From the NCBI GenBank assembly GCA_965248195.1, contig CBDFIQ010000001.1:960001-1024000 (forward strand): DNA of 64,000 nt. Reading direction: 5' to 3'. Source of the stretch: Longimicrobiales bacterium. GTDB taxonomy: Bacteria > Gemmatimonadota > Gemmatimonadetes > Longimicrobiales > Gaopeijiaceae. The translations under genes were made by a program, and so were the position numbers. The notes under the pieces are model-generated. The model was given only the letters and a program-made list of their open reading frames with translations, was not told the DNA's origin and did no database searches. This document shows, one piece after another, positions 41,360 to 63,954 of the stretch (position 1 is its first letter; each line of letters starts with the position of its first letter).

Positions 41360-41495
41360 TGATGATCCGTCGCACGTGGATCAGCTCCTTGATCTTACCG
41401 ATGACCTTGTCGCCGCTGACCCTGCGCTGTTCCTTGGTCTTTCCTCCGGCCTCTACACCGAGCTGACGGTCGGCTCCTGCGGTCTCGTCGTCCAT
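41360..41495 (-). pseudogene. DUF4342-like fragment in frame with the M23 gene
   Basis: VSGDKVIGKIKELIH-VRRII resembles DUF4342 KELIHEGNVRRII with EGN missing. Confidence 0.45.
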
Positions 41496-42501: not shown

Positions 42502-42569
42502 GGGGGGACTGGCGGGAGACTGTACGGCAGCGAAGGCTCAGATCCCCTGGCTTCGCGTTCTTCGTGGAA

Positions 42570-43945: not shown

Positions 43946-44038
43946 TCGTGGAAGGCGTGGTGATCGTCAGGTAGCTGCCGTGGAATGATCCGGGTGGGTC
44001 TCGGGAAACTGCGAGTGTCACCGCGCGATTAGGTGGAT

Positions 44039-44461
44039 ATGAGAACCAGACCAAGTGTGATCCTGATCAGGGAATGGGAAGAGCAGTTGTCAGGCAGCGG
44101 TTGCTGTGGACGAGTGGAAGGCGACTTCCTGACACGCGAAGGAGAGCCCGCCTTTCGGGAGCGTCGGGCATGCATGGAGGCGATGGCACCCTTGTCCCGG
44201 ACGTTGAGAGAGAGATTCGGCGACGCGATCGAGCTTCAGGTCGTGGATCCGCGGAATGCGTTCTTGATATTCCTCCTGCTCAGGGATTTCTGGGCCTTTC
44301 GTGTGGGCCTTGTTGAAGCCCTGAAGACGATCGGGGGGCTCCCGGTCCAGGCCGTGGTCGTGAACGGTAAGCTGCTATCACGAGGGGAGTGGCCGGATCC
44401 GCTCGAGGTGGTTCAGATTCTCGAGGAGGCGATCTCCGCGGGCGTCCTCCAACACGCCTGA
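44039..44461 (+). CDS. Hypothetical protein with a GSGCCG motif (thioredoxin-like fold suspected)
   Basis: Clean ORF with RBS; vicinal Cys; VVDPRN and AVVVNG..LSRG.WP. Confidence 0.7.
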   Translation: MRTRPSVILIREWEEQLSGSGCCGRVEGDFLTREGEPAFRERRACMEAMAPLSRTLRERFGDAIELQVVDPRNAFLIFLLLRDFWAFRVGLVEALKTIGGLPVQAVVVNGKLLSRGEWPDPLEVVQILEEAISAGVLQHA

Positions 44462-44551
44462 CGCGCGTCTTCGTGGAAGGCGTGGTTATCGGGTCGGGTC
44501 GATTCTGCTGGGGCGGCAGTCAAGTAATCACGTTCTAAAGGAGTAGAACGA

Positions 44552-44949
44552 GTGTTCAGGAATGTGCCCTTGCTGGTCTTACTCGGGGCTGTAGTAGGGT
44601 GCGCACGTGATTCGCCAACATCCAGTGAGACTTCAGGAATCGTGGGGTATTGGTTCGGGTGCGAGTTGGGCTCTTCAGACAGTTGCCAGATTCTGGATGA
44701 CGATGGTGCACACTTCACAGCCGACGGTCAGGTCTATGGAATCGAAGAATCCACCGCGCTTACTCTACCAGAATGTGGAGAAAGTCTCTGTTTTCGAGCA
44801 GATCGACCCAGCATAACCATTACCCGTGACCTAGTAGGTACCTACAGCCTGGATGGTACGTCCTTAACCGTGACCATTCTCTCATGTACACACACCAGCA
44901 TCTTCCAGATAGGTACTGATTTCACTGAAAACCAATCGAACTGCATGTT
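44552..44949 (+). pseudogene. Cys-containing lipoprotein, truncated by IS3
   Basis: AAGGAG RBS, lipobox VVGC; the frame runs into the IS3 end at 44950. Confidence 0.6.
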
Positions 44950-45093
44950 TGAATCGCCCCGGGTTCATCGGAGACTGTTTGACTTGAGTGTCAGAGGCTC
45001 ACCTGGAGCGTCCTGACGCGAATAATACAACTCTTCGTACTCGGCCGGCGGGATATGGCCGTGGGGCTCGAAGAGGCGATGGTGATTGAACCA

Positions 45094-46469
45094 GGTAGTG
45101 TCCCTAGATTTGTGTAAAAGCGGATAAGCTGGACAGGAGGGAAAGAAAAACGGAAGCTCCTCTGTTGTTGTTCACTGTCACATGAACCCGGGAGTCCGGG
45201 TCTGCAGAGCAGGCTCGGAACCGGAGAGGAGCTTCCGATGCAAGAGATTGTGGAGATCGGTCGGGCCACGCAAGACGAGCTACGCGATGATTTGCGCGAG
45301 CTGTTTCAAGGCGCGATCCGGCTGACGCTCGAGATGGTGCTGGAAGAGGAGCTGAAGGCCATGGTAGGTGCACGCCGCTTCGAGCGGGTGGGAAGCCGGA
45401 AGGACCATAGGAACGGCACATACCTGAGGCGGCTGCTGACGAGCCTGGGGCAGATCGAGGTCGCCATGCCCCGGAGCCGGGACAACGGTTCGCCGGCCGA
45501 CGTGATCGGCCGCTACCAGCGCAGGAGCCCCGAGCTCGACGAGATGATGGTCGAGGCGTATGTGAGCGGCGTGTCACAGCGCAAGATGGGCGACGTCACC
45601 GAGGCGCTGATGGGCGAGCGTGTTGGGCGCTCGACGGTGAGTCGTGTGGCAAAACGGCTCGACGAGGCCGTGGAAGGGCTGCGCCGTGCGCCGATCGAGG
45701 GGCCTCACCCCTATCTGTACCTGGACGCCACGTTCTTGGACGCCCGCTGGGCCCGCAAAGTCGAGAACGTGAGTGCGCTCGTGGCGTATGCAGTGGGCCC
45801 TGAGGGTCACCGACGGCTCCTGGCCGTCACGCTGGGCGCTGAGGAGTCGCAGCAGAGCTGGTCGGAGCTCCTCGAGCAACTCCAGGACCGCGGCCTCGGC
45901 GGTGTCGAGCTCGTGATCGCCGATGAGCACGCAGGCCTGGCAGCTGCGGTCCGCCGCTTCCTGCCCGAGGCACGCCGTCAGAGGTGTACGGTCCATCTGC
46001 AGCGTAATGTGGGGGCGAGGGTCCCCCACCGCCTACGCAAGCGCGTGGCGCGTGAGGTCTCGGTGATCTTCCAGACATCCGGACTCGCCGAGGCGAAGAA
46101 GCTCCTGGGCGAGTTCGGCGCACGCTGGAAGAAGGAGCTGCCCGAGGCCGTGGAGGTCCTGGAGCGGGGCTTCGGGGCAGCGACGCAGTTCTACGCGTTC
46201 CCCGAGGCGCACTGGCCCCGGCTGCGTACCACCAACAGCCTCGAGCGGCTGCACGGCGAGATCAAACGCAGGATCAAGGCCGCCGGCGCCTTCCCGGACC
46301 GGGCCAGCGCCCTCAGGCTCATCACGGCCGTCGCACTCAGGACCACACACGTCTGGGGCGACCGGCGTTACCTCGACCTCTCACTCCTCCAGAAACAGGA
46401 GGTCGCCCAAGCAGCCTAGCCGAAGGCGAGGAGCTTCCTCCGCTTTTACACACAAATCGGGACTTGACC
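45094..46469 (+). mobile_element. IS256-family element, copy 3
   Basis: 8-bp TSD TTGAACCA at 45086-45093 and 46470-46477. Confidence 0.96.
45238..46419 (+). CDS. IS256-family transposase
   Basis: 393 aa, identical translation to copies 1 and 2. Confidence 0.95.
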   Translation: MQEIVEIGRATQDELRDDLRELFQGAIRLTLEMVLEEELKAMVGARRFERVGSRKDHRNGTYLRRLLTSLGQIEVAMPRSRDNGSPADVIGRYQRRSPELDEMMVEAYVSGVSQRKMGDVTEALMGERVGRSTVSRVAKRLDEAVEGLRRAPIEGPHPYLYLDATFLDARWARKVENVSALVAYAVGPEGHRRLLAVTLGAEESQQSWSELLEQLQDRGLGGVELVIADEHAGLAAAVRRFLPEARRQRCTVHLQRNVGARVPHRLRKRVAREVSVIFQTSGLAEAKKLLGEFGARWKKELPEAVEVLERGFGAATQFYAFPEAHWPRLRTTNSLERLHGEIKRRIKAAGAFPDRASALRLITAVALRTTHVWGDRRYLDLSLLQKQEVAQAA

Positions 46470-47280
46470 TTGAACCACCAGACCCATTCGAGGGTGGCGA
46501 GCTCGATGTCTTCGAGGGTGCGCCACGGACCGCGTGGACGAATGAGCTCGGTCTTGTAGAGTCCGATGATCGTCTCGGCCAGGGCGTTGTCATACGAATC
46601 CCCCCGGCTGCCTACGGACGGCTCGATGCCTGCCAACGCCAGGCGCTCGGTGTAGCGGATAGACAGGTACTGCCCCCTGCGGTCGCTGTGATGCACCAGG
46701 CGCTTGTCTGCGTCGTCCTCGCGTTCACAGATCGCCTGCTCGAGAGCGTCGAGCGCTAAGTCACTGCGTAATGAGTTCGAGACCCGCCATCCGACGATGC
46801 GACGGCTGAACGCATCGATCACGAACGCCACGAAGACAAACGCATGGCCCGTCCGCACGTACGTGAGGTCCGAGACCCACAGCTCGTTGGGACGTGCCGC
46901 GCTGAAGTCTCGGTTCACGAGGTCCAGCGGGCGCTCGTCGCCCTCCGCCGTGTGCGTTGTCACCTTGAAGCGCCGCCCTCGCGTAACCCCACAAAGCTCC
47001 AGTTCCTTCATGAGCCGAGCCACCGTGCATCGAGCCACGGTGATGCCTTCCCGGTTCAGCTGCTTCCACACCTTCTTCGCCCCGTAGACCTGGAAGTTCT
47101 GCATCCACACTCGACGGATCTCCGGCTTCAGCATCTCGTCGCGCTGAGCCCGGACCGATCGTAGCGTCGGATCTGCCTGCATCGCCTTGTGCGTGTAGTA
47201 GGTCGACGGAGCGATCGGCAGTACCTCGCAGATCGGCTCGACTCCGTACGTGGGCCGGTAATCGTCGATGAAGGCCACCA

Positions 47281-47601
47281 TCACCGAACTCGGCGGTCGA
47301 GCTCCGCCTGTGCGAAATACGCCGATGCCTTACGCAGAATCTCGTTCGCCCGCTTCAGCTCACGATTCTCACGCTCCAGCACCTTCAGTCGCTCACGCTC
47401 TTCTGTCTTGAGACCGGGCCGTTGCCCCGTGTCTCGCTCCGCTCGTCGAACCCATTTACGTAGCGTCTCCGCCGTGCACCCGATCTTCTCCGAGATCGAG
47501 CAGATCGCCGCCCACTGTGAGCTGTACTCAGGCTCGTGCTCGAAAACCATCCGAACGGCTCGCTCCCGTACCTCTGGGGAGTACTGTCCTTTCCTTTTCA
47601 T
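47281..47601 (-). CDS. IS3 OrfA
   Basis: [43 protein letters not shown]. Confidence 0.93.
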
Positions 47602-47651
47602 GACTCCATCCTCTCAACTGATGGAGTCTCCGGCAAACCCGGGGTGATTCA

Positions 47652-50600
47652 CTCACCGCTCCGGGCTTGGTGAGCCCGCCGGTGGCCGGGTCGTACTCGG
47701 CGTACTTGACAGGGTTCTGGGCGAGGAGCGTGTTGGAGAGCGGGGGCGCCGCGAAGTACCGAGGTGTGCGGCCCTTGAATTGGATGCCGTTGGCGCCGTA
47801 GCGGACTACCCAGAGCTGGGCGTCCCGCGCCGGCCCGTTTCCCTGCCACGCCACGCCGCTCGCGATCACCATCGACTTCGCCGCGAACGCGTGCTTGAAG
47901 TCCTCCGCGAAATGCCGATAGGTGAGCGGGCCCTTCGAGGTGTCGAAGTCCTCGGCGGCGAGCGCGTGATCCGAAGGAGCGGCCGTCGTGGTCTGATCGG
48001 GCCGTGGTGGGATCGGCGTGACCGTCTCGACCACGTCGCTGACGCCGCCGTCGGGCTGATTGTCGAACGGCGCGTGTATGCACCCGTCCCTGCGCAGCAT
48101 GATCGACAGGCCGAGCAGATAGATGAGGTCGTCCTTGACGTCCGCTGCCGCGAAGCCCTCGGTGAGCTTGAGGGGCGTCAGCGCCGGCTCAGTCGGCGCC
48201 TCGGTCCCGATAACCGACGGGATCAGCCCCATCAGGTAGCCGTACACCGTATAGGCGTTGTGCTTCAGCAGCGTCGTCTCGAACTCGAGACCCGGCGGGG
48301 AGTCTCCCGGCGTCGCTTGGATCGCATCGAGGATCGAGCTCGTCACGTAGCCGGTGACGCCCTTGTCCGTGCCCGCGACAGCCTCGACATCGAGCTGATA
48401 GTAGAAGAGCGCGTATTTCTCCGCGTCGTTGGCGATGCTCTGAGGCGTGTTGACGAGCGTCTGCAGCGAGGTGCTGATGGGGTGCTGGGGGCAATCGTCC
48501 GTCACCGCGCTGCGGTCGCTGGCCCGTCCCTCGTCCGTCCCGAGGTGCGCCTCGGCCGCCGCGACCCACCCCGCGACCGTTGTCGGCGGGGAGCCGGTGT
48601 GCCCGACCCCGTTGGCCTTCAGGCATGCGATCGCCGCCTCCATGCGGGCGACAACATCCGTATACGGGTTCGTATTGAAGTGGAAGTCGACCTCGAGGTT
48701 CGCCCCCTCGGTTCCTCCGGCCTTGAAGCGGTACGCGAACGACAGATTCGGAAGTCCGGCCAGGCTCGGCACCGGATCGAAGTACAGCGCATCGATCGAG
48801 TCGAGACCCACTCCAGGTGTCGTGATCTCGTTTCCGAACAGATCGGTCCACGAAGCATAGAATGAGACCGGCTGCCCCACGGGCGTGTAGGGATTCTGAT
48901 CCGGCGGCGGCGGTGGTGATGGCGCCGGCGGGGCTGCCAGCGTGGCGGCCCCGGCCACTCGGTACGGGGGAAGGAGCGGGTAGACCTGTCGGTACGTCCA
49001 GACCCCACCAGCCGCCGTCGGCCCGTCTTCCGGATCGACAGGCCCCACACCGGTCGTCTTGGGCGGGGCCGCGATCGCCGTCGTTCCGATCGCGCTCACG
49101 TAGCAGGTGAGAAGGTTGAACAGGTACTCGAGGCTCGGCCCGTACTGTTCCCCACCGTTGTCCGAGCGCGGGGAGGCGGCGGGGTCGGGAGGCGCGTCGC
49201 GCGTCACCTGCACGCCGACGTGGCCGGCCTCGATCGTCGCCACCGTGTGCGTGATGTCGCTCGACGAGCTGTAGAGAACGTCGCCGGCGGCCACCGAGAC
49301 GTTCGCGGTGACGACCGCGTCCATGTAGCCGAGCGGCTTCGACGCGACCGTGGCGGAATCGTACCGGATCACCACCGTGAGCTCCGCCTCGCCCCCCTGA
49401 CCGAAGAGCTCCTCCGGGAGGCCGGCGCCCTTCACGTCGTAGTACAGGTAGTAGCCGCCCGAGTTGGTGATCCCCCCGGTCCACAGATTCGTCAGGAAGC
49501 CCGTCACGTCGGGCGGCGGGGCGGTCTCGAGAAGCGAGAGGAGAACGGCTGATGTGTTTTGCGGCCGACTCTCGGTCGATAGGTTGCTGCGTAACAGCAC
49601 CATCGTGAGGTCGGCTGCCTCCGCCGACTCGAACTGCTCTACGTGGCCCAAATCGTTGGCGAGTCCGTAGGCGATGTGCACCGTGGCCCCGTCGAGCGCG
49701 GCGGTGGCGGCGAGCACCTGCTGCAGGCGATGGATTCCGGCCGCGTCCACGCGGGCCAGCTCGTACGTCGAGGCGAGGTCTCCGGGTTGGCTGCCCTTCG
49801 CACCCGTGGTACCCGGGGTCGAGATGCGTCGGACCGTGACCCGGACGGTCGTTGCCCAGCTCAGATCGTCTGCGGCGACCGGCGTCGGGTCGGTGCTCGG
49901 AATCGAGCCGTCGTCCTGTTCCTTTCCCACGTACAGCTCGAACGTCGAGGCGCCATCCGCCTTCGCGAACGCCGACTGGAGCGTGGGCGGGAGCTGCCAC
50001 AACGTCGTCGGCGTTTTGTCGCCGCCGATCGCCCACGGCGTGCCGAGGGAGATACCGAAGCGACGCGCTTCGCTGTGAGCGATCGGGAGCTCTCCCGCCG
50101 TCGGCTCGATGGCCAGTTCGAGATCCAGACCCGAATGTATGCCGGCGGGACTCCGGAGCAGCGACTGGGCGTCCCCAGACTCGATCTCGACGAGCTGGAT
50201 CGAGCCGTGCATTTGCGGCGGCTCGGGGCCCACGACGTTCCAGTAGTCGTCGGCGTTCTCCGCCAGCGAGAGCGTCAGCGTCGCGGACGTGTCCGTGGTC
50301 CCCACCACCGGGAATCGCTGGCCCGTCAGCTCGTAGAAGGGCTCGGTCTCGGCCGCAGGGGGCGGGGCGGGAGCGTCCTCGTGCGGGGCGGGAGCGCCCT
50401 CGGTCGGGGGCAGAGCGCGTGTGCCGTGGAGGAGATTCCGGGTCGCGAAGCCCGCCGCGTCGGCGAGGTCGGCGTTTTCTACGACGTCTCCGATCGTGGG
50501 CGGCGAAGAAGCGCCCGTGACGTCGCCGTCGCCCTGACCGCCTCCATTTCCGAGGGTCTTCAAGTAGTCGGCTGCGCATTGTACGCCGAAGCGGGCCACG

Positions 50601-53600
50601 AGCTTGAAGTAGTCGACGACGACCTTGTCACGGAGCGAGGAGCCGTCCGTCGCGTCGAGCGTCGAGGAGTGGGTCCCGGAGACCGAGTTGCGGCGGCGCG
50701 AGCGCAGCGCTCCGTCGACGCTCGTGTCGTCGAGGCGGTCGAAGTACGCCGGGCTCAGCGTGATCGATCGTCCTCGGGTGGGGCCCGAGCCGCCTTGTGT
50801 GTACTCGATGTCGAACTCCGGCAACATGGGGAAGTACGCGAAGCCGTACTGCGATCCGTTGGACACCTGCTTCGGCGCCTGCAGCTGGAGCTTGTAGTAA
50901 TTCTCGGTGAAAGAGTGGACGTGGTGGATCGAGAAGGGCTCCGGGGTCGACCCGAGATACTCCTGGATCGCGGCGACCGTAGTCTCGTCGATGGGCTTCT
51001 CGTCGACCGTGCCCTCCGATACGGTCGTACCGGGATCGTCGTTTCCGTAGGCGTTGAGTACCCACCGGAGCACACCCTCGGCGAAGTCGGTGAACGCGGG
51101 CGCGGGATCCTCGTAGTCGATCTGGGGGGCGTCGCCCGCCGCCGGAGGCTCCTGCGGATTGTTCAGGTAGAGCATGGCGACCCACACCGGGGCATCCGCC
51201 TCGCCATCGATTTTGCCCTTCGTCAGCTGAGGCACCAGGTACCCGCTGAGCCCACAGAACTCGCCGGCGGTGTCCTTCCGGATCGGCTGCCAGCCCATCA
51301 CCGTGGCTCCCGTGCCGTCGGTGACGGCCAGAACGCGCCTCTCCTCGAGCGCCGGTGTCTGCGCCCACAAACCCGTGGAGTCGCTGCCGAACGAGAACGA
51401 GGTGTGAACTTCCGCTCCGAAGTGAACGTGGACGTGGATCGTGAACAGCCCCAGGTGGATCTTGACCGTCAGGCTCACCGAAACGGAGACGCTGAAGCGA
51501 GCGTAGGTCTTGACGTAGTGCTCGATGCTCAGCGTCGCGGTCGCAACGAGCTTGACCAGGAGGTCGGCGGTGATGATCGCCAGGTCGACCGAGCCGGTGA
51601 GCTCGCCGACGAAGCGCACCATCCCGGACACCTTGTAGTAGACGTCGCTGTTTTGCCCCGCAACGGGATTTTGTAGCGAGAACTTCGCGTAGGTACCCTG
51701 GATGATGAACTCCATCATCGCCTTCAACTGGGCCGAGAGCGGGCCCTCGTTGAACTCGCGCATGATCCCCACGGCGATCCCGATCCCGAACTCGATGACC
51801 GGGTTGAACGTCCCGGGGTTGGTGATCGTGGGCAGCCCGGAGGCAGTGTCGCCGTTGAGGTACCCGAAGTAGAAGCCGCCTTGCCCGGTGAAGACCAGGT
51901 ACGTGACTCCCGCGGACTTGCTGAAGTCCGCATGGTACGGGAAGCCGAGGTCGATCTTGAAGTTGCCGTTCGTGTAGATGGCGAGGCTGAACGACGGCAT
52001 GTAGACCACCACCGAGCCGAGGTCGAGCGTTCGGAACTGCTTCGGGAGGGTGAGCGCTACGAAGTACTCACCGATCGAGTCCGTGACCTTGCGGTACAGG
52101 ACCTCGAAGTACAGCCCCACGAAGAGGTCGAGCTTTTCATCACTCGGAGCCTTCCCGGGCGCAGCGTCGACGCGGATCATGAGCCCGTACATATTCGGGT
52201 CGTTGAAGATGATCTCGGTCACTACCTGGCCCAGGAAGGTCATCTTCGCGCCGATCAACCATCCGCTGTCCCCCTGGAATTCGAGCTTAGCCGGAAACAA
52301 CGTCTCCTGGTCACCGTCGGGACTCAGCACGGAAGTCAGCGTGCTGATCGCGTCCTCGACCCGATCGGGGGCGGGCACCGGGAACGCGATTCTCTGGCCC
52401 GCGGCTACGAGCCCGACGTCGAAGTAGCTTGCGCCGAGCCCGGGCACCGAGGGCTCCGTCCCTGGCTGCGACGGGTCCCAGGAGATCGTGCTCTTCCCAC
52501 TGGCGGGATTACCGCCGCTTTCCAGCAACGACGGGAACGTGCCCTCCAGCGAGAAGCTCAGCGCGCCCTCGGATTCACCTTGCTTCCTCTGGTACTGGAT
52601 GGTCACCGACTTCACTTCGATGCCGAAGTGGGGCTTCCCGCCCGCCGGCAACGTGACCTTCACCGACTTGGTCGCGCCCCATGACACTTCGAGCGTCGAC
52701 CCGCTCTTGATCTCGACCTCGTCGAGGATCTGATTCCACGGCTCGCTGAACTCGAAGCCGGGGTTTCCGGTCAGCGATGCGACGAACCAGGCAACGCCGT
52801 CCCCGATCGCGAGGTCGTCCTTGAACGTGAGCGACGCCGACTGCTTGTGATGGTCGTAGGTGCCGACCACGTCGACAGATCCGATCGCGACCTCGGCCTG
52901 GACCTCCTGCTGCACGAAGTCGTAGCCCAGGGAAAGCTTGAAGCCGTCCAGATCGAAGAGCGCGAAGACCTTGTCCGTGCGAGTTCCGTCGGCTTGCCGG
53001 AGGTCGATCTCGACGGCCGAGTGGAGGTCCAACCCGTCCACCCCCCAGTCGCCGTCGAAGACGCCATGAAAGGCATAGCTCGAACCGGGGCCGGCGTCCT
53101 CATCGACCTTGTATTCGACGCCGAGCGCCTCGAGCCCGAGCTGCCGTAGCTCGCTCGGGATGAGCGAGATCTTCGAGGCGCTCAAGTTCAGGAGGTGCTT
53201 GGCGATGAGCTCGACCGTGAGGGACTCGGCGGTGGTCTCGTTCCAGACCGTGAGCGTGCCGCCCACGTCGATCGCTCCGGAAAAGTCCCAGACGGCGTCC
53301 GACTTGCGGGCGTCCGCTGTGAGAAGGAGCCCTCTTCCCTTCGTGATCGACGGCACCGTGAACTCGAGCAGACCGACGACCGCAGCGGAGTAGCTCCCCT
53401 GTCCCCAGTCGAACGCGAAGCTCATCCGATCCAGGGCGAGCACTCCATCGATGAGCGGGAACGGTATCAGGTCGGACGCGCCGTCGCTCTTGGCGTTCGT
53501 GGTGACGAGCGCGGTTCCACCCGGGGACGACGGCGCCGTCGACGTCGGCACGTACACGACATCGGACGCGAACGAGACGCTCTTGTTGGAGAGCCCGACG

Positions 53601-54334
53601 ATGAACTGCAGATCCTCTAGGCTGAGGCTGGCGAAGTCGCCCTTTACCGAGATGTTGAAGATGCCGAGGAGATCGGCGATCGAGATCGTCTCGCCGCCAG
53701 GCTCCGTGATGGAGAGCTCGAGATCCGGGAAGTCGAGGGAGACGTCCAGCGTCTTGGGTGCGCGTGCGCCCGGCCCGCCCACCGCCGCGACGGCGGCCGG
53801 TTCGATCTCGAGCGTGCCGAGTGCCTTCGCGTAGAGCGTCTGTCCCGGGTGACCCGGCATGACGACCAGCACGTCCAGCGCGTCGAGCGTGATCGCCAGC
53901 TTCTCCGCCACCTGCAGCGTCGCGCCCCGCGTTGGCCTGCCCCCGCCCTGCGCCGGGGTCCAGACCGAGATCTCACATCCGAGGCTGCTGAGCCACGGCT
54001 TCTCCGACTTCGACGTGCGGAGTGCCGAATACGACACGGACTCGAGCCGTAGACTCTTGAAGACTTGGCCGAGGAACGACGACTGGGTGGGGATCGCGGT
54101 AGCGACGGGGGAGCCCGCGACCAGGCTCGCGATCTTGTTGACCTCGTCCTCGAGGCCGACGTCGAGCGCGACCGTCAACGAGGCTGGGCCGCTGTCGGGT
54201 CCCTCCGCAATCTCGAAGATGCTTTGGGCGGCCGGGAGGAACGGGCTTCCAGTCAGGAGCGCACTCTTGATGTCCTGCTCGAGCTGGTCCTTGGGGTCGG
54301 TGGCGGCGAGCGCCGGCTGGGTGCCCTCGCTCAT
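47652..54334 (-). CDS. Giant uncharacterised protein (~2227 aa remaining), 3'-truncated by IS3; DUF6603-like beta-rich region suspected
   Basis: ATGA-coupled to the EEP gene; long amphipathic beta stretch (FNDPNMYGL, IYTNGNFKIDLGFP, GGFYFG); frame reads into the IS end. Confidence 0.8.
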
Positions 54335-55659
54335 ACGTCGACGTACAGGGGCAGATGGTCGCTGACGAACACCCGTAGGAAGACGGCGGCGGTCACCCAG
54401 GTCGTGAAGGACCCCGCCCCGTGGACGCCGAAGTCGGATTCGAAATTGGGGATGATCGTATCGAGGTGCGGTCGGAGCGCCGGAGGCGCCGAGGTGGAGT
54501 CGGCCTTCCACGCCGCCACGCCCGCGGTCACCAGCGCGCGTATCGGGCTGTCGGACCCGAATATCCCCTCACAGACGGCCTGATTCGCCTTGCGTCCCCG
54601 GATGAGCGACAGCAGGTCGAGCACGCCGCCCTCGTATGCTTGCGAGCCGAGCCAGTAGTCGTTCGCGTCGCCGAAGCAACTGTCGTAGGAGCTGGAAAGG
54701 GTGCCAGACCGATTCACGTATCGCACCGACGTCTTCGCGTAAGCGCCGTCGGCTGGCGTGGTGCCGGTGCCGTAGCTCGTGCCCCTGTGGAACGAGGGGA
54801 GGTTGCCGAACGCCGCAGGCCTTTGGGACGGCGTGCGGAGGTTGAAGTCTCCCGCGAACACGGCCCCACCGTCGCCTTTCAGCTCGCCCAGCTCGAGGGC
54901 GAGGCTCGCCAGCATGACGCCCTCGGGCGCGGAGCTCGTCCCGTTGGGGGCATGATAGGTGACGACGTTGACCACCTTACCACCGCTGAGGACCTGGCAG
55001 CGACTCGGGAACCTGACGCCCGTCCGCCACGCGATCGCCGCGATGAGATCATCTGTGGCGGGCGTGGAGCGCGTGCTCCTCCGTGTGACCCCCACGGGCC
55101 CGGACTGACGTCGCGGAAACACCGCGGAGTCCTTCCCCCCGACCGCCGCCGCGTGGATCGGGACCGCCGCACTCGGGACCGCCTCCGGCTCGGCGATCTC
55201 GAGAACCAGGTCCAGGAAGCACGCTCCGCCCCTGAGATTGGATCGCTCGGATCGGTGAACGTGATCGAACTCCTGGAGGACGCCGGTCCTCCACACCACT
55301 CCGTAGCCCTCGTTATGTGCAGCCTCCGCGTACTGGAGCTGGTCGGCGGTCGTGGCGTCCGCAACGAGGAGCGCCCCCTTCACGAGGTCCCAGTTCGGCC
55401 CCAGAACGTTTTCTTGTCTCTCTTTGGAGTGCCTCCGCGAGGCACCGAGGAAGCCGAGGTCCGTGGCGAGCGCGGGCAGAAGAGCCACCGACCCCTTCTT
55501 CGCCTCCTGAATGATCAGCACGTCCGACACGCGAGCCGGCGTCCCGACTTGGTTCATCATCACGAGCTTGATGAACTCGTGTAGGCACTCGTAGTTGCCG
55601 CGGTACGACGGTGAGATCGACCCGTAGTTCTCGATGTTCCAGATCATCACGCGCGGCAT
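54331..55659 (-). CDS. Exonuclease-endonuclease-phosphatase (DNase I-like) protein
   Basis: WNIEN, IQE, YHAP, AGDFN, D-YW and SDHLP catalytic motifs; GGAGGT RBS; no signal peptide. Confidence 0.85.
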   Translation of the reverse strand: MPRVMIWNIENYGSISPSYRGNYECLHEFIKLVMMNQVGTPARVSDVLIIQEAKKGSVALLPALATDLGFLGASRRHSKERQENVLGPNWDLVKGALLVADATTADQLQYAEAAHNEGYGVVWRTGVLQEFDHVHRSERSNLRGGACFLDLVLEIAEPEAVPSAAVPIHAAAVGGKDSAVFPRRQSGPVGVTRRSTRSTPATDDLIAAIAWRTGVRFPSRCQVLSGGKVVNVVTYHAPNGTSSAPEGVMLASLALELGELKGDGGAVFAGDFNLRTPSQRPAAFGNLPSFHRGTSYGTGTTPADGAYAKTSVRYVNRSGTLSSSYDSCFGDANDYWLGSQAYEGGVLDLLSLIRGRKANQAVCEGIFGSDSPIRALVTAGVAAWKADSTSAPPALRPHLDTIIPNFESDFGVHGAGSFTTWVTAAVFLRVFVSDHLPLYVDV

Positions 55660-55660
55660 G

Positions 55661-58600
55661 TCACGCACCTCCCTGCGGGCCGCCCGTGACTTGCTTGGCC
55701 GGGTCGGGCTGCACGTAGCTCCCGAACCAGCCGAGCGTGTCGGGAGGCCTGTCCGCCACTTCCTCGGGATCGCCGAACACCACTACGTTGGTACTTCCCT
55801 TGGCGGGGAAGGTGAAGACCAGGAGCGAGAGCCCGATGCTCGCGAACTTGATCACGTACAGGTCGACCGTTTTGGAGCTTCTTGCCTGCTGCTTGCCACC
55901 GGAGTCCACGGTAACCAGGTCCATCACAACTTCCTGGGCGCCGAACTTCACGACCCCCTCCAGGTCGACCAGGCGCTCGATGGGCCCGAGCCCGGGAAAC
56001 TTGAGTCCGACATACCAATTCCCGGTGGAGATCCCCCACGCGAGGAGCATGTCGGCCGTCATGACCGGGTTCTTCGAGAGCGCGCCCAGAGTCCCGATGT
56101 CGAACTGATACGAGAGGCCGTACCACTCCGTACCGAGCTCTCCCGACATTCCGGCCTTGTCGAGCGGCGGCACCGTGATCGCGCCGTACCCCTTGGACTC
56201 CGGCGTTTCGGTGGACGAGGTAGCGTGGATGTAGCTCTTGAGCTTCAGCGGGAACTGAGCAGCGAGCCCACCCTTGCGTACGTACGTGAAGCCGTTCTGG
56301 AGCGAGGTGGCATGGGCGTCGACGATCTGGATGTTGCCGCCCTTCACGAGCAGGGCGTGATCGTCGAACGTGAAGGTCCGGTTCTCCGTGGTGGTCGTCT
56401 CGAGGTCGAGATCGAACGCCATCTCGACGGCGAGGTTGCTGAACCCGAGTCGGAGATAGGAGAACAAGTCGAAGTACTTGTCATCGGTCCCCGCGGGCGA
56501 GCCGAGCGCCGGGCCATGCCCGAACTCGATGCCTCCAGTCAGCGCGAACGCGGTCTCGAAGTGTGTGGTGTTCCCGTCGTGTTGGGTGTTCCCGTCGTTT
56601 TTGGTGTTCCCGACGGGCGTCGTGGAACGGATCTCGAATTCGGCGATATCGATCTCCACCGACGCCAGCGCCCCCTGGGCGGTATAGAACGTCGCACGCG
56701 AGCCGGAGGCAGTGGAAAAGGAGTAGTACGGCTTTCCGTTTCTGGTGTGGATCGCCCCGTCGAGTATCAGCCGATTGGTCGCCGGCGGCCGGTCAGCCGA
56801 GTCAGCGCCCGACGTGGATCCGCCCGCATCACGCGGCCTGGAGCTCAGCACCTTCTGCCCGAAGAGCGTCCCGAGCGCCAGGAGGATCTTGCTGGAAAAG
56901 CCCGCGAGCTTGGCCTTCTCGAACTGGACGATCAGGCTGAGCACGCGGAAGTCGTAGGGCGTCGACAGGATCTCGATTTCGGGAAGCTGCGTTCCGCTCG
57001 ACAGCGCGCGCTCGTACTCCGGATCGGTGTAGTGGACGAGCGCGAAGACGGCGCTACTCAGCTTGTACGGCGCGCCGTCGGCCGCGGTCCCCGACGCGCT
57101 CACCGGGGTCGCGTGCGTGACCTCGTTGCCCATGTGGTGCGCGTAGAAGCGCGACATGTCGATGCCAGCCGTGAGCGCCTGGATCTCTTCCGAAAGCTCA
57201 CCGAGGCCGAGATCGACGCGTAGAACGAGGAACCCCGACCAGTCCGGATCGTCCACCAGCTCTACGAACTGCTGGAAGCTCGCCTCACCGAGGCCTTCTT
57301 TGTATGCCTCGTCCGCCGACTTTATGTACTGCTGAAGCCAGTCCTTCAGATACGTCCCGTCCGGATCGGTGTCAGTGTCCGTGAACGACGTCCGCTCGGT
57401 CCACGCGGAGGGGTTGGCCACCAGGTCGCGGGTTTTCCCCTTGGCCGACTTGAAGATCCACACGTTGCGATAGGCGCCGACGACCTGCTGCTGCGGCGGA
57501 CGGACCTTGAAGGCCCATCCGCTCATCTCGACCTCGTGCGCGAGGCCGGTCAGGTTGCCCTGGTCGACACTGACAACGAGAAAGAGCTGGTTGGTAAGGA
57601 ACGCGCTGCGCAGGGTCGCAGGGAGCGCCGCCGTGTCGCCACCAGAGTCGAACTGCAGGACCTGCTGGGACTCGCCGTTCGCTCCCGCCGAGGCTGTCGA
57701 CGCTTCCTCCTGCGACTCGAACTCGGCGAAACGGAGCTGATTCCAGGTTCCGTGATGGAACCGGCTCATCGCTCCCGTGGCGGTGAGCGCGTACCCGTCC
57801 GCGGTCGCCGTCGCCGTCGCCGTCGCGGTCGTGTCTTCGGGGTCCTTCCGCTTTTCGCTCTCCACGCTGGCCTTCCGGGCCGGGTTGAGGACCTGCATCT
57901 CGAACGCCGAGAGCGCGAGATCCGCGTCGCTACCCGGGGGATCGTGAACGGAGGCGTGGCTGTAGGGAACGAGGGGGAACGGCTGGGGGGCAGCGGTGAC
58001 GGGAGGGCTGGACAGCTTGGCCTCGGAGACAGGGAGGAAGTCCAGCAACGTCGGCGCCGGATCGTCGGTGGCGTGCTGGAAGAACGGATTGCCGTTCGGC
58101 TCGGAGTAGTACCAACCCGGATCCGTGGACGCCTGGAGAAGCGCCACCCATGAAGTGGTGAACCCCTGCTCCGCGAGCGGCGTAAAGGTGAAGTCCGGTG
58201 CCTCGGAGCTAGCCCCGTTACCAGAGACCGCTCCGGCCCCGTCTTGCGAGCCCGCCTTCCACTCCACCGTGCTCTGCGCACGCCGGTCGGGAACGAAGCG
58301 CAGGACGTCACCCGCCGCGGGGTCGCTCTGGGTCCGCGGCGTGAACGCAAAGTACTCGGTGCCGCTCAGGCCCCCCAACAGATTGTCCCCGTAGTTCGGC
58401 TCGACGGTCGCGGCGGCGCCGGCGACTCCGAGCACGAAATCTCCCTCGGGCGCGAGATACACGCCCGTGGCCGACGGGGTCGAGGCGTCGCCCGCCGGCG
58501 CAGGCTTGTCGGTAAAGCGGAGACGCACGGCAACGTGGCCCCATGCGGGCGCGGTGGCGGGCGTCAACGTGACTTGATGACCAAGGAGCGTCCTCAGGTA

Positions 58601-59368
58601 ACTCCCCAACTCGGGTGCGAAGCTCCCATCCCCGTTCGTGAACGCGTAATACGTCCTGGACGGATCGGTGAGCTGGTACGGGTCCAGAGAACCGCGAAGG
58701 AGGACGGTCTCTGCGGGGGCGAGCTCGAACATCGGGTATCGGGGGGACCAGAACGCGTCTCCGTCCTTCCAGAAGTAGCGAAGGCCCACATCCAGGTCGT
58801 CGAGCTGCGCCTCGTTCAGCGCGCAGTCGAACTGCAGCATACCTTGGTGATCGACGTCCACGAGGAGGTCGACGGCGCCGAGAGTGACGCTCAGCTCCCC
58901 CGCGCCACCGCTACCCTGAACGAGCTCGAGTCCCTGCCCGTTCTCCCACGGTTGGATCACGAGCCCGTCCTTCGCGTCGTTGAGGCAGACCTTGCAATCC
59001 GCCGAGATCGTCACGGTCGCGTTGCGGAAGTCGAAGCTCATCGACTCGGACCACGACAGGATCTGTCCATCCGAGTTCAGAAAGATCCTGCGTGACGGAT
59101 TGAGCGGCCTCGCATTCGGATCGTCGATCCACAGGAACGCACGGGTGGCCCCCGAGACGAGAAGGGGGCGCACGAAGCTGCCGAAGCCCGTGTAGTCCGT
59201 CGGCAGCTCCTTTACGAAACAGAACACCCCCGAGTCGAACGCCTTCGACAGCTCAATCGACCTATCGGTAGACGCGGGTTTGGCCACGTATAGCAACACC
59301 GTATCCGCTCCGGGCTGCTCGGTCGGCGCGAACACGCCGCCGCCGAGCGCGTAGTACGTCACACTCAA
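55661..59368 (-). CDS. Large uncharacterised protein (~1235 aa)
   Basis: GAGG then TTG 59368 (or GTG 59362); strong coding bias; stop 1 nt before the EEP ATG; ends ...LGWFGSY... Confidence 0.8.
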   Translation of the reverse strand: MSVTYYALGGGVFAPTEQPGADTVLLYVAKPASTDRSIELSKAFDSGVFCFVKELPTDYTGFGSFVRPLLVSGATRAFLWIDDPNARPLNPSRRIFLNSDGQILSWSESMSFDFRNATVTISADCKVCLNDAKDGLVIQPWENGQGLELVQGSGGAGELSVTLGAVDLLVDVDHQGMLQFDCALNEAQLDDLDVGLRYFWKDGDAFWSPRYPMFELAPAETVLLRGSLDPYQLTDPSRTYYAFTNGDGSFAPELGSYLRTLLGHQVTLTPATAPAWGHVAVRLRFTDKPAPAGDASTPSATGVYLAPEGDFVLGVAGAAATVEPNYGDNLLGGLSGTEYFAFTPRTQSDPAAGDVLRFVPDRRAQSTVEWKAGSQDGAGAVSGNGASSEAPDFTFTPLAEQGFTTSWVALLQASTDPGWYYSEPNGNPFFQHATDDPAPTLLDFLPVSEAKLSSPPVTAAPQPFPLVPYSHASVHDPPGSDADLALSAFEMQVLNPARKASVESEKRKDPEDTTATATATATADGYALTATGAMSRFHHGTWNQLRFAEFESQEEASTASAGANGESQQVLQFDSGGDTAALPATLRSAFLTNQLFLVVSVDQGNLTGLAHEVEMSGWAFKVRPPQQQVVGAYRNVWIFKSAKGKTRDLVANPSAWTERTSFTDTDTDPDGTYLKDWLQQYIKSADEAYKEGLGEASFQQFVELVDDPDWSGFLVLRVDLGLGELSEEIQALTAGIDMSRFYAHHMGNEVTHATPVSASGTAADGAPYKLSSAVFALVHYTDPEYERALSSGTQLPEIEILSTPYDFRVLSLIVQFEKAKLAGFSSKILLALGTLFGQKVLSSRPRDAGGSTSGADSADRPPATNRLILDGAIHTRNGKPYYSFSTASGSRATFYTAQGALASVEIDIAEFEIRSTTPVGNTKNDGNTQHDGNTTHFETAFALTGGIEFGHGPALGSPAGTDDKYFDLFSYLRLGFSNLAVEMAFDLDLETTTTENRTFTFDDHALLVKGGNIQIVDAHATSLQNGFTYVRKGGLAAQFPLKLKSYIHATSSTETPESKGYGAITVPPLDKAGMSGELGTEWYGLSYQFDIGTLGALSKNPVMTADMLLAWGISTGNWYVGLKFPGLGPIERLVDLEGVVKFGAQEVVMDLVTVDSGGKQQARSSKTVDLYVIKFASIGLSLLVFTFPAKGSTNVVVFGDPEEVADRPPDTLGWFGSYVQPDPAKQVTGGPQGGA

Positions 59369-59399: not shown

Positions 59400-60518
59400 T
59401 TACCGCCATAGTCGGAATCCCGCGAGCGCGGTCCACTGGCGCAGGGCCCCCCCGTGGCTGGGCCCCAAGAAGTCGACGTCGATGGTTCGCAGGCCCTTCG
59501 TCGGACCGTCTCCCAGCAGCGCCAGCTGATCCGCCGCGAGGGCCATGCCAGAGACGGACTGAAGGCGCCCTCCGATGAAAAGCCGACCGCGATCGAGATC
59601 GATCTCGAAACGGGCACCGATATCGACGAGCGTAGCCAACACGGCCTCGTCGCCCTCGACAAACACCAGGACACCGGTCACGGGCCCGGTAGGGTTGGCA
59701 TCCGTCCGATCCTCAAGTACGTCGTCCACAAGGTTCAGGAAAATACCGGCGCGACTCTCGAAGGCGAGGCCGGCCCGACCCTGTCCGAACCTGTGGCGCA
59801 GCCCGACCTCTCCACCCAACAGGTCGTTGCCCGCCGCCACGGTCAGGCGCTCCGTCCGTCCGGCCGTGCCCCCGAGGCCGGTCCCCGTGACTGTGGCCGT
59901 GAGGCGATCCGTGGCGCGGAAGTAGCGCAGGCCGAACTGCGCGGAGGTTCCCGGTCGCAACTCGGACAGGGCGGACACCGACGCGTCGTGATAGCGCATG
60001 TCCCGCTCGACCGCGTAATCAAAGGGTGGATCCACGAGGAAGTTCTGCGGCCATCCGGGCATCCCATTACCCCATGGTATGGAGCGGGATTCCGGGCGGA
60101 AGCTCCCTCTGCCACGCCACTCGCGCGTCGTCGAGTAGCTGACCTCCAATCCTCCACCGTCGCCGGCGTTACCGAAGGTCACGCGGCCGCCCCAGGCGCC
60201 GCCAAAATCGACGTCGCGCGTGGTCAGCGAGCCGAGGAGCGCCGGCGCCGCGGGTGAGGTCCGGTTCGATGCGAGTGGGACGAGCGCTCCGTTGCCGCGC
60301 CAGCCACGGATCCCCGAGAACTCGACGTAGGGGCCTTCTGGGCGCTCCTGAGCAGTCAGCGCCACGGGTTCGAGCACAGGAAAGAGGACGATGCCAAGCA
60401 CCGTACACCCGACAACCAGTGGACTACAACGCGAGCGGTAAGGGAGCACCGATGGGCCCATGTGAATCCTCATGCGTATAAGCGAAGTGCCAACATGGGG
60501 GGGCCACCGGAGCACCAT
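59400..60518 (-). CDS. Putative outer-membrane beta-barrel (BBP7-like); start uncertain
   Basis: Signal peptide ending ALTAQ, amphipathic strands, NDLLGGEVG, terminal AGFRLWR. Confidence 0.6.
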   Translation of the reverse strand: MVLRWPPHVGTSLIRMRIHMGPSVLPYRSRCSPLVVGCTVLGIVLFPVLEPVALTAQERPEGPYVEFSGIRGWRGNGALVPLASNRTSPAAPALLGSLTTRDVDFGGAWGGRVTFGNAGDGGGLEVSYSTTREWRGRGSFRPESRSIPWGNGMPGWPQNFLVDPPFDYAVERDMRYHDASVSALSELRPGTSAQFGLRYFRATDRLTATVTGTGLGGTAGRTERLTVAAGNDLLGGEVGLRHRFGQGRAGLAFESRAGIFLNLVDDVLEDRTDANPTGPVTGVLVFVEGDEAVLATLVDIGARFEIDLDRGRLFIGGRLQSVSGMALAADQLALLGDGPTKGLRTIDVDFLGPSHGGALRQWTALAGFRLWR

Positions 60519-60551: not shown

Positions 60552-62159
60552 CTACCGGCGGTCCTTCCGGTCGATGGGTGGGACAGGCATGTCGAGGCTG
60601 AGGGCCGGCCTTCGGGTATGCCATTCCGTGGCCTTCTCATAGGCGTTCGCGAGGGCTAACACTCTACCTTCCGAGAAGCGCGGCCCGGCGATCATGAGCC
60701 CGATGGGGAGGCCGTCTGCCGAGAAGCCGCATGGGATCGAGGCCGCGGGAATGCCGAAGCTATTGAAGGGTGAGCAGTTCGACGTGGCCCTCGGCTCGGT
60801 CGGCTCCCCCCCGTTCTCTTCCCGATCGAGCGCTTCGTTGATGGTGGGCTGCATCACGCGCCATGTGGGAAGCACGACGAGGTCGTGGTCTACGAAGGCG
60901 TCGTCAATGGTTTTCCGCATTCGCTGCAGCTCCCACTGGGCGTTGATGTAGTCCACCACCCTCGTCGAGCACTGCGTCGTCTCGACGTCGTTGAGCCTCC
61001 TGTGGACGGCCGCGATCGTCCGCCTCTGGTTGAGCGAATAGCGGCCGGCGCTCCGCTGGTACCACTCCCAGTGGAACGCCTCGATCTCCCCAGAGAGGTA
61101 CGATCTCGAGTACTTCCCCTGGGGCGGTAGGCGCGTGTCGCTGACGCTCCGGGTCAGCTCCGTCAGGACGCCGATGGCCTCCTCCATGGCGCTCGCGATC
61201 TCGGCGTCGAGGAAGTCGAAGAAAGGCTCTCTCAGGATTCCCAAGCGGAGCCCACTCACGGACTGACTCAGGGCCGCGCGGTAGTCTTCGAGAGGATGCT
61301 CGACGCTGGCCACGTCGTGCTTGTCGTATCCCACCATGCCGGACAGGAGCAAGGCACCGTCTTCGGCCGTCTTCGTCATCGGACCGCAGTGGTCCAGTGA
61401 GTATGTGCGCGGGATGATCCCCCCGATGGACACCAGGCCATACGTGGGCTTGAGGCCGACGATGCCGCAGTAGGCGGCGGGCATGCGGACCGAGCCACCG
61501 GTGTCGGTGCCCAGCGCTCCGAGGGTCATGTCTGCGATCACTGCGGCGGCCGAGCCCCCGGAAGAGCCGCCCGAGATGCGGTCGAGCGCCCAAGGGTTGC
61601 GGACGGGAAGGAAGTACGTCGAGACGTTGGTCCCGCCCATCGCGAACTCCTGAAGGCCGGCCTTAGCCATGATGACGGCACCGGACTCCTTCAGGCGTTT
61701 GACCACGAAGGCGTCCTCTTCGGGGACGTTCTCCTCGAACACGAGGCTGCCGCCCGTCGTGCGCGTTCCCGCCGTGTCGATGTTGTCCTTGAGCCCGACG
61801 GGGATGCCGTGCAGAGGTCCGCGGAAGTTCCCCGCGCTCGCCTCGGCGTCGAGCTGCCGGGCCTGCGCGAGAGCTTCCTCGTGCATGATCGTGATGAAAG
61901 CATTGACTGTGGGGTTGTACGCCTCGCCCCGGGCCAGGCAGGCCTGCGTGAGCTCCGTGCAGCTGATCTCTCTCCCCCGGATCATGCGCGATGCCTGAGC
62001 AATCGTCAGGCTCGCCAGCTCATCGGACTGGGTTGCGGTGGGAGTCGCGGCTTCGGCGTGCGAGTATCCGGGCAGGGCGGGGAGGGCGGCGGCGCCCGCG
62101 GCGGCGCTAGCGGTCACCCGGACGAAGTCGCGGCGGTTCCAGCCGTCTTGCAGCTTCAT
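60552..62159 (-). CDS. Tat-exported amidase-signature enzyme
   Basis: NRRDFV twin-Arg; GPLHGIPVGLKD, GGSSGGS, GTDTGGSVRMPA, GLPIG. Confidence 0.9.
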   Translation of the reverse strand: MKLQDGWNRRDFVRVTASAAAGAAALPALPGYSHAEAATPTATQSDELASLTIAQASRMIRGREISCTELTQACLARGEAYNPTVNAFITIMHEEALAQARQLDAEASAGNFRGPLHGIPVGLKDNIDTAGTRTTGGSLVFEENVPEEDAFVVKRLKESGAVIMAKAGLQEFAMGGTNVSTYFLPVRNPWALDRISGGSSGGSAAAVIADMTLGALGTDTGGSVRMPAAYCGIVGLKPTYGLVSIGGIIPRTYSLDHCGPMTKTAEDGALLLSGMVGYDKHDVASVEHPLEDYRAALSQSVSGLRLGILREPFFDFLDAEIASAMEEAIGVLTELTRSVSDTRLPPQGKYSRSYLSGEIEAFHWEWYQRSAGRYSLNQRRTIAAVHRRLNDVETTQCSTRVVDYINAQWELQRMRKTIDDAFVDHDLVVLPTWRVMQPTINEALDREENGGEPTEPRATSNCSPFNSFGIPAASIPCGFSADGLPIGLMIAGPRFSEGRVLALANAYEKATEWHTRRPALSLDMPVPPIDRKDRR

Positions 62160-62535
62160 AGGAAAGTTCCCCTTGGCGTTAGGTTGATCGTTTCCTGCCA
62201 CCCTACTGTCAGCTCCTGGAGGGCTGTTCGATCCAGCCGCTACGTCGTGTGCTGAGTAACGGCATCTGACGATGCGACAGCCGTTACTGCCGCCAACTAT
62301 AGTTTCCGATATCGCCGGTTGCAAACCGCCGAGCTGCAAGGAGAGGGCTGGGGGTCGTCGAGCATCCCCGGCCGTGAGCGAACCCTGTGCAGGAGCTAGG
62401 GTGACGGTACCACGGACTACATCGGTATGGGGAATCCCTTGGCCGGGAAGGAGTCCGTTCCAGCGACCCAGAAGTCAGGGCCTGGTTTTGACCTCGGAAG
62501 AGGTCGGCAGGATCGAGGGCAGACGGGCGGCCCCG

Positions 62536-62907: not shown

Positions 62908-63954
62908 TCAGGTTATTTTCCGCGGCGTACCCGTCTCGACGGCGGCAGCTACCAGCTTCTCGATGTCTTCCTTCCCGGTAGCGACACGGCTCGCGATCGT
63001 GCCGGCGGGATCGACTAGTACTACTGCCGGGGTGACGAAGACACCGTAGGCGTCGGCCACCCCGTCGTCCTCGTCAGAGAGTACGTCGCTCACGCCTGAG
63101 ACCAACTCTCGGGCCCGCGCGGCCTGCTCCCACCCACTGCCGAGCACGGCGATCCGCAGCGTCTCACGTTGTTCCCGCTGCCACTTCTCGACGTCGGGTG
63201 CCAGTGCCATACAAGGCTTGCACTTCGGGTCCAGGAAGATCAGCAGGATTTTTCTCCCATCGCCGCACAGGTCGTCGAGGGCGACGGATCCGCCCGCCAG
63301 GGAAGGCAGATGGAAGCCGGGGGCGACCTCCCCGACCGGGAGGTCGCGCGCCTCCGTGCGCGGGTTGAAGAGCTCAGGCACCGACCCACCCCGTCCTTCC
63401 AGGGCATCCAACCGAAGCAGAAGCCGGCCCTGCTGCCGGATCAAGTGGAGAATGAGCCACCCCTCGACCGCCACGGCGGCGAGCAACCCGATCACCACGG
63501 AGGGCCCCACCACCTCCGAGCGTGCGGACTGGGCGATGAGCGCGACGATGCTCGGCCCAGGGCCCGCCCAGACGACGAACCCAGCCAGCGCCAGCAGCAC
63601 GCCGTTCCGCAGGAGCGTCGACCACCCGATCGGACGCGTGTCGGTCGAGCCGAAGCATCGGCAGGGTGGCCTCCGCCCCAGCAGGAGATTCACCACGATG
63701 ACCGCGGTGAACACGAGTAGCAGGGTCAATGCAGCCAAGGCGCCCCACGACGCCGAGCGGACGGGGAGAAGGACCACGGCCACCGCCAGCTCGGTGAGTG
63801 GAAGCAACGCCGCGACGGTCGCGGCGAGCCGTTCCGGGACGCCGAGTTCCGTAGCCGCGTGCCGTGTACCCTTTGGGTCGAGCAGCTTCGCGCCAGCCGC
63901 CACGACGAAGACCGCGCTCAGCAGCAGTCTGGCGAACACCAGTAATGAATCCAT
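62908..63954 (-). CDS. MauE/DoxX membrane domain fused to a MauD-like thioredoxin (AhpC/TSA) domain
   Basis: ARLLLSAVF...AKL, PCRCFG, LLRNGVL; GEVAPGF, CKPC, TPAVVLVD..G.I. Confidence 0.85.
   Translation of the reverse strand: MDSLLVFARLLLSAVFVVAAGAKLLDPKGTRHAATELGVPERLAATVAALLPLTELAVAVVLLPVRSASWGALAALTLLLVFTAVIVVNLLLGRRPPCRCFGSTDTRPIGWSTLLRNGVLLALAGFVVWAGPGPSIVALIAQSARSEVVGPSVVIGLLAAVAVEGWLILHLIRQQGRLLLRLDALEGRGGSVPELFNPRTEARDLPVGEVAPGFHLPSLAGGSVALDDLCGDGRKILLIFLDPKCKPCMALAPDVEKWQREQRETLRIAVLGSGWEQAARARELVSGVSDVLSDEDDGVADAYGVFVTPAVVLVDPAGTIASRVATGKEDIEKLVAAAVETGTPRKIT

Follow-up and report, generated by a model that had tools for sequence, protein, structure and literature searches.

A three-gene locus in a Longimicrobiales bacterium, lying within the 64,000-nucleotide stretch of contig CBDFIQ010000001.1 analyzed here (the window), encodes a large protein A, a DNase I-like phosphodiesterase of the EEP superfamily (E) and a giant protein B, and belongs to a family that is real, widespread and undescribed in the literature searched. 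Comparison with related loci indicates that A and B very likely provide a scaffold for a docked enzyme that can be swapped. With a probability of roughly 40%, the system would be a protein-delivery machine of a new class, one that shares no ancestry with the secretion or injection systems described so far. In this reading A, B and a third protein, U, would form a self-contained particle equipped with an arm that binds cell walls, a barrel that inserts into membranes, and an N-terminal docking sheet exchanged along with the folded enzyme it carries (DNase, MBL nuclease, HNH, PLD, deiminase or glycosyltransferase), and horizontal transfer would have spread it over at least ten phyla.

A widespread gene pair surrounds an exchangeable enzyme slot

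The genes for A, E and B (Table 1) are preceded by a GAGG motif 8 nt upstream of the TTG start of A, are separated by a single base between A and E (55660) and by an ATGA overlap at 54334–54331 that shares the TGA of E with the ATG of B, and have the same overall and third-position GC content (GC3) as neighboring genes. None of the three proteins has a hydrophobic N-terminus (best 11-residue Kyte–Doolittle mean 1.1–1.35, versus 2.7 for the gene upstream of A) or a clear transmembrane helix in this hydrophobicity scan, a crude measure distinct from SignalP, and neither A nor B belongs to a Pfam family. The initial annotation of this DNA had described a tightly packed minus-strand set of a ~1,235-aa protein, a 442-aa EEP enzyme and a protein of more than 2,200 aa, with no Sec or Tat signal and with amphipathic beta strands in both large proteins; gene order and sizes held up, with B comprising 2,227 native codons before truncation by an insertion sequence (IS), the crude scan agrees on signals, and structural models confirm the amphipathic strands.

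Table 1. Coordinates of the locus and adjoining features in the window
Feature	Coordinates	Strand	Description
Gene A, 'hemagglutinin protein' family (label only)	55661..59368	-	1,235 aa, TTG start, intact
Gene E, slot enzyme, DNase I-like EEP phosphodiesterase	54331..55659	-	442 aa, ATG start
Gene B, giant scaffold, truncated	47652..54334	-	2,227 native codons
B residues 44–259, N-terminal beta-sheet region	53558..54205	-	Homologous to most of the predicted docking surface (profile match E 8e-11 to positions 268–460); ~220 residues that relatives have are missing before it
B residues ~639–990, conserved core	51365..52420	-	Long antiparallel strands of amphipathic character; curved sheet or barrel resembling a porin
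372-aa outer-membrane-barrel-like gene, hydrophobic N-terminus	59400..60518	-	No Pfam; ends 31 nt before A
IS3-family element truncating B; transposase interrupted by IS256	44950..47651	-	HTH_Tnp_1, rve
IS256 (Mutator-family) copy inside IS3	45094..46469	+	PF00872; identical copies across genome

A profile built from five A sequences recovered 1,726 clusters at a threshold of E ≤ 0.001. Among the kin of the window's host, A was found in 1 of 60 relatives in a single-protein search and in 0 of 300 members of a phylum sample searched with the profile. We compared 104 loci (given L numbers), comprising the window, 9 plasmid records, 24 genome loci and 70 metagenome loci drawn from the best 80 of 251 matches, a set gathered by motif patterns that is a biased sample and includes near-duplicates. 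Named hosts belong to Pseudomonadota, Bacillota, Cyanobacteriota, Actinomycetota, Acidobacteriota, Bacteroidota, Planctomycetota, Thermodesulfobacteriota and Gemmatimonadota, and one lineage we take to be Chloroflexota; the system thus spans at least ten phyla, and its single-membrane hosts include Paenibacillus, Lysinibacillus and Embleya. B lies downstream of A in 66 of the 67 loci with at least 6 kb of downstream sequence, and in the remaining case B is found on another contig of the same genome, bearing out the earlier suggestion that the two large genes form a recurring pair and co-occur in other genomes. A third conserved gene, U, encodes a core of ~385 aa to which fn3 or laminin-G repeats are often attached; among the 72 loci where 1.5 kb or more of upstream sequence is available, it lies before A in 44. 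The labels first suggested for this pair proved partly right: Tistrella relatives of A are named 'hemagglutinin protein', with no haemagglutinin domain in A, and relatives of B are named 'LysM' proteins, while DUF6603 membership and a LysM domain in the window's surviving B did not stand. As that annotation had supposed, we found no description of the A–enzyme–B system in the literature searched, whose supplements could list these families.

A census of the 75 loci showing both A and B revealed unrelated enzymes in the slot between them: EEP proteins in 36, ComEC-like MBL proteins in 16, an HNH pair in 5, an arginine deiminase, a GT-like protein and a 179-aa protein in one each, and an empty slot in 15. 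The slot therefore carries swappable content, as first conjectured, and the EEP gene of the window is no one-off insertion. Tandem arrays of diverged EEPs occur in 5 of the 36 EEP loci. A further 29 loci end before B and contain EEP (13), MBL (4), PLD (2) or GT-like (2) genes or nothing readable (8). On a FastTree phylogeny of 71 A proteins, from which 9 near-identical and the short or unassigned rows were dropped, slot type changes 18 times, compared with a minimum of 6 and a shuffled mean of 29.8, indicating that slot types cluster by descent yet have been replaced repeatedly; HNH appears at four separate places. B starts between −14 and 166 nt from the last enzyme, two mis-called starts aside.

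Several empty slots have an enzyme elsewhere in the locus. The GT-like protein that stands alone in the slot of L081 forms an N-terminal fusion with B in L005, L006 and L118, and in L013, where B is split, it is joined to the first half; L005, L006 and L013 count among the 15 empty loci, and L118 is a further locus. Another 5 of the 15 have a signal-bearing EEP from a different subfamily ahead of A, and two are shortened near-copies of such loci. In L015 (4653–9861), and also L041, L044, L050 and L052, a signal-bearing EEP lies between U and A with the usual slot empty, and some loci of the L015 clade place an FGE-sulfatase and a carboxypeptidase-regulatory-domain protein there as well. In L030, L037, L069, L071 and L084 the gene after the PtuB-like HNH is in every case a shorter HNH-like one whose motifs are degenerate, possibly encoding an inhibitor or partner. 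Three MBL slot enzymes have signal-like N-termini.

The window enzyme retains a complete DNase I-type active site

E matches PF03372 at 25.3 bits (cut-off 24.5) and shares the full catalytic set of the DNase I/EEP superfamily, with intact residues N8, E52, H236, D271, N273, D326 and S433-D434-H435; the corresponding columns (N, E, H, GDxN, D, SDH) are invariant across 42 slot EEPs. Compared with the wider superfamily, slot EEPs are long (390–500 aa) with large insertions, and their clade has a median identity of ~25%, no signal peptide and no CdtA or CdtC partners. The best Protein Data Bank matches of the E profile are DNase gamma (E 1e-10) and DNase I (E 9e-10), followed by sphingomyelinase and nocturnin (E 2e-5), and CdtB is absent from the 60 of 68 matches listed; the likeness to CdtB drawn at the outset thus gives way to DNase gamma and DNase I as the best solved relatives. 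We rejected cytolethal distending toxin as an identity for the locus, as the neighbors of E are A and B, which have no Pfam family and no signal, and a cdtA-cdtB-cdtC operon with its ricin-B-fold partners is absent.

Enzyme and B N-terminus appear to travel as one cassette

We next compared the history of the slot with that of different parts of B. When B is compared over its first 260 aa, the nearest neighbor has the same slot type in 47 of 50 cases, against 38 of 50 for the B core, and a first pass over 55 loci gave 91% agreement for the B N-terminus versus 69% for both the B core and the C-terminal half of A. The clearest case is L037, where the B core is 76% identical to that of an MBL locus and the N-terminus is nearest another HNH locus. 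These patterns indicate from sequence comparison that the enzyme and the B docking region are exchanged between loci as one cassette.

Contacts between EEP and scaffold were then predicted for a homologous pair, the EEP of L070 with residues 1–500 of L070 B, from a clade with better alignments than that of the window. The complex scored 0.66 and the best of 3 controls 0.00. It thereby passed a mark that 116 of 157 solved complexes attain, as do 2 of 215 mismatched pairs, a calibration that is rough here because own alignments were used; the runs agreed on at least 66% of contacts with a partner pLDDT of at least 86. The model supports binding of the EEP to the B N-terminal region. The predicted interface pairs alternating, mostly small polar residues of a B sheet (225–377) with outer helices of the enzyme, and lists none of 10 catalytic or conserved EEP residues, unlisted residues being uncertain; this absence would fit a holder better than an active-site inhibitor. 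Residues 44–259 of the window B cover 29 of the 47 predicted interface positions.

The same evidence bears on the alternative that the slot is only a recombination hotspot, its enzymes being passengers with no physical tie to A and B, which would do something else such as transport lipid along a hydrophobic groove. Linkage accounts for co-travel, 15 of 75 slots are empty, about 5 of these with no enzyme seen, and amphipathic sheets also line lipid-transfer grooves. We consider this reading improbable: 60 of 75 slots have an occupant, almost always an enzyme whose start is coupled, one and the same enzyme is found both free and fused to B, and the complex prediction passed against its controls.

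Folds and surface modules of A, B and U

The conserved core of B is modeled as long strands with one face composed of 73% FILVMWY and 4% charged residues and the other of 27% and 23%, respectively. Outer-membrane porins (maltoporin and others) match this core at a root-mean-square deviation (rmsd) of 7–9 Å and differ from it in that the core is internal to a 3,000–4,400-aa protein, has no signal peptide and occurs in single-membrane bacteria, among them Bacillota and Actinomycetota. Occurrence in single-membrane hosts makes it unlikely that the barrel-like core serves the producer as an ordinary outer-membrane porin. A is beta-rich with no match to a solved fold and is a candidate new fold. 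Modules of extracellular type occur in relatives, with LysM in 7 of 7 complete B proteins scanned and fn3 or laminin-G fused to U, and B C-termini are conserved among relatives.

Related loci contain further surface-type genes. In L110 (12740–19225), L111 (14017–19655) and L112 (12978–19936), B is followed by a collagen-like gene, several glycosyltransferases and a stand-alone ~260-aa copy of the A N-terminal domain (E 1e-10 to 1e-13), and collagen or GT4 genes lie upstream of A in L091 (7839–9476), L076 and L079; the A N-terminal domain may partner collagen fibers. In eight loci (L008, L012, L030, L088, L097, L098, L101 and L103), a member of a ~580-aa family lies ahead of a long U gene that carries fn3; those of L008 and L012 were seen to end in a Hint domain. 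Genes for PixA, an inclusion-body protein, lie upstream in L046 (7512–8201), L051 (7622–8726) and L118 (2311–5384), and L118 also encodes a pepsin-like aspartyl protease just before A.

Comparison with known systems

Tc (ABC) toxin complexes and Rhs cocoons resemble the A–B system in combining several beta-rich giants that lack signal peptides with a variable enzyme of 30–55 kDa and a part that engages membranes, a role proposed here for the B core. The A–B system differs in having no sequence match to them, no RHS core or autoprotease, and a cargo predicted to dock folded on a sheet; Foldseek rows have TM scores of ~0.07, and whole-chain fold searches gave no meaningful match to a TcA, TcB-TcC or RHS-shell fold, although long models can hide domains. 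Polymorphic toxin systems, for which Zhang et al. (2012, PMC3482391) describe LysM and laminin-G adhesion modules, offer a second parallel through their conserved carrier, variable nuclease or lipase cargo and tandem cassettes, and a variable enzymatic module swapped by recombination is likewise found here (six slot classes, 18 changes and cassette co-travel). In contrast to polymorphic toxins, the enzyme has its own gene ahead of B or is fused to the B N-terminus and does not form a C-terminal tip, no immunity gene directly follows the enzyme, and the carrier has no known trafficking domain. The system may work like a polymorphic toxin system but lacks two of its defining features, the C-terminal toxin and the immunity gene, the second HNH-like gene of HNH loci being a possible exception for the latter.

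Other candidate families were set aside. DUF6603 (PF20248) gave no hidden Markov model match on A or B at E ≤ 1, nor at the place of B in 5 genomes; it is the nearest named cluster by language-model features (A 0.77, B 0.86), where scores under 0.9 are leads only, so that the proposed DUF6603-like identity of B comes down to this 0.86 look-alike. Filamentous haemagglutinin (TpsA/TpsB) was rejected, A having neither Pfam match nor signal; of 23 loci examined upstream, one has a TpsB gene, which is accompanied by its own TpsA. Contractile injection genes (sheath, tube, baseplate and VgrG) are absent from the 97 upstream open reading frames (ORFs) of 23 loci and from 9 plasmid regions (one without a gene table), distant loci not having been searched. 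Slot enzymes of other loci resemble anti-phage effectors: the slot HNH matches models of PtuB (Septu/retron) at E 2e-36, the MBL matches LmuA, Avs1a and 6A-MBL models and the PLD weakly matches DrmC, with NCBIfam matches of slot enzymes below cut-off. These loci have no PtuA ATPase, STAND NTPase or SMC partner, and the scaffold matches no PADLOC model.

Proposed mechanism and alternatives

We propose that A and B, usually with U, assemble into a large particle whose exchangeable enzyme is directed at other cells. U, A, enzyme and B would be made together without signal peptides, their gene coupling suggesting co-transcription. The enzyme would dock on the polar face of the beta-sheet in the B N-terminal region, as predicted for one homologous pair, or be fused there, as observed in some loci, and A and U, which co-occur with B, may assemble with it. 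The target surface would be bound by the LysM repeats of B together with modules of the fn3, laminin-G or collagen type, all of them present in relatives, and the amphipathic porin-like core of B might then engage the target membrane and deliver or present the enzyme, the most speculative step. E, with its catalytic residues in place, would cut DNA. Release from the producer could occur by lysis or self-export, both of which are guesses. Nucleases, PLD, arginine deiminase and GT-like proteins are cargo typical of toxins. We put antagonism by a released particle at slightly short of even odds.

Several observations weigh against this proposal. No signal peptide was detected on A, E or B, no gene of a type VI secretion system, an extracellular contractile injection system or a type VII secretion system was found among the 97 upstream ORFs of 23 loci, and no separate immunity gene lies between the slot enzyme and B, which starts right after it. 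About 5 of the 15 empty loci have no enzyme seen. The slot-change tree was built with FastTree only, and the cassette result draws on 12 informative loci that represent about 5–6 events, with L016 and L017 pairing N-terminus and enzyme type the opposite way; linkage alone can give the N-terminus pattern, because recombination between conserved flanks moves both parts. In the window, agreement between N-terminus and enzyme comes from a 4-bit score, and the window B lacks ~220 N-terminal residues, including 18 of the 47 interface positions. The complex is that of a homologous pair predicted from own alignments, with controls that included no non-cognate enzyme. With a porin match at 7.2 Å rmsd and a predicted TM score (pTM) of 0.48, the B core may be only a curved sheet.

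Some of these points would be at home in a system of surface enzyme display, in which A, B and U would form a coat or appendage anchored by LysM to the wall peptidoglycan of the producer and would keep a hydrolase on the outside for the digestion of DNA, lipid or matrix, no target cell being involved. Such a coat would require no immunity gene, and it is consistent with the LysM repeats of B relatives, with the collagen-like genes, glycosyltransferases and A N-terminal domain copy after B in L110–L112, which recall surface glycoprotein loci, and with the signal-bearing EEP, MBL and accessory genes of some loci. HNH, arginine deiminase and GT-like proteins are poor nutrient enzymes, however, repeated swapping and tandem diverged EEPs (5 of 36 EEP loci) better match an arms race, and the spread is patchy (1 of 60 relatives, 0 of the 300-member phylum sample). 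We regard display as unlikely, at about one chance in four.

The patchy spread and the lack of signal peptides on A, E and B would also suit an intracellular anti-phage or anti-plasmid system, in which a docked nuclease or lipase would be set loose once A and B detect infection or damage to the membrane. The resemblance of slot HNH, MBL and (weakly) PLD proteins to defense effectors points the same way, as do two plasmid loci, L011, near SIR2 proteins and a type III-B CRISPR system (2416–14990, 41943–45001), and L010, near a nucleotidyltransferase-E2-JAB cluster (4566–7886). Against this, A, E, B and U match 0 of 5,027 PADLOC models, no NTPase or other sensor is present, LysM, fn3, laminin-G and collagen are extracellular module types, and housekeeping or transport genes make up most of the ORFs upstream of A in 23 loci, defense-type genes there being a single AbiEii and a single FRG gene. 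A defense role therefore appears somewhat less likely still than display, and delivery by a U–A–B particle remains our preferred reading.

The window copy is damaged

The copy of the system in the window is probably non-functional, since the IS3-family element cuts B at codon ~2,227 and about 700 aa are lost. The reading frame of B is native to 47652, continues through 41 IS3-derived codons and stops at 47528. Its expected length is ~2,900–3,000 aa: residue ~2,205–2,219 aligns ~650–700 aa short of the end in relatives of 2,953 and 3,006 aa, and complete B relatives span 3,006–4,421 aa. The lost C-terminal end was not found elsewhere in the genome by tblastn or by profile, no LysM (PF01476) is found in the surviving 2,226 aa of B, in contrast to most relatives, and the U profile finds nothing in this genome; the initial annotation had mentioned neither the truncation nor the missing U. 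The IS3 flanks, GAG and AAC, show no target duplication and an unrelated gene lies on the far side of the element, indicating that the locus has been rearranged. Assembled contigs from 3 of 4 runs reach 27–28 bases into IS3 across the gene junction with no alternative letters, all four runs coming from one sample and hence not being independent, and contigs that skip the IS256 copy exist. The genome holds roughly 100 near-identical full copies of IS256 (read off a table, untallied), of which 3 are in the window (39512–40693, 42714–43895 and 45094–46469), and 10 left and 9 right ends of IS3, several with unmatched flanks that point to rearrangements. Other loci are also disrupted: B is split or shortened at differing points in several of L008, L009, L010, L013 and L022, and L022 has frameshifts in both A and B.

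The usual place of U is occupied in the window by the barrel-like gene of Table 1, possibly an accessory or a bystander, which in a 4-sequence comparison is weakly similar, at 27% identity (E 2e-5), to the gene just upstream of A in L021/L061 (8249–9439); L021, L061 and the window all lack U. Farther upstream are an amidase with a twin-arginine-like leader (60552–62339, minus strand) and a MauE-thioredoxin fusion (62908–63954, minus strand). On the other side, a lipoprotein-like ORF (44552–45016, plus strand) runs into the far end of IS3 and an M23 peptidase ORF (40833–41495, minus strand) abuts an IS256.

Implications

A family of ~1,700 clusters of multi-thousand-residue proteins has so far been visible only under a misleading 'hemagglutinin' or 'LysM' label, and the present analysis supplies an architecture for it, along with a cargo slot of variable content and a surface on which docking is predicted. 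As the copy in the window is damaged, its value is that of a pointer to the family. If the system is a delivery particle, it would represent a new route of microbial antagonism that operates without signal peptides in both one- and two-membrane bacteria; if it instead serves defense or display, the cassette logic of its enzyme slot would still be undescribed.

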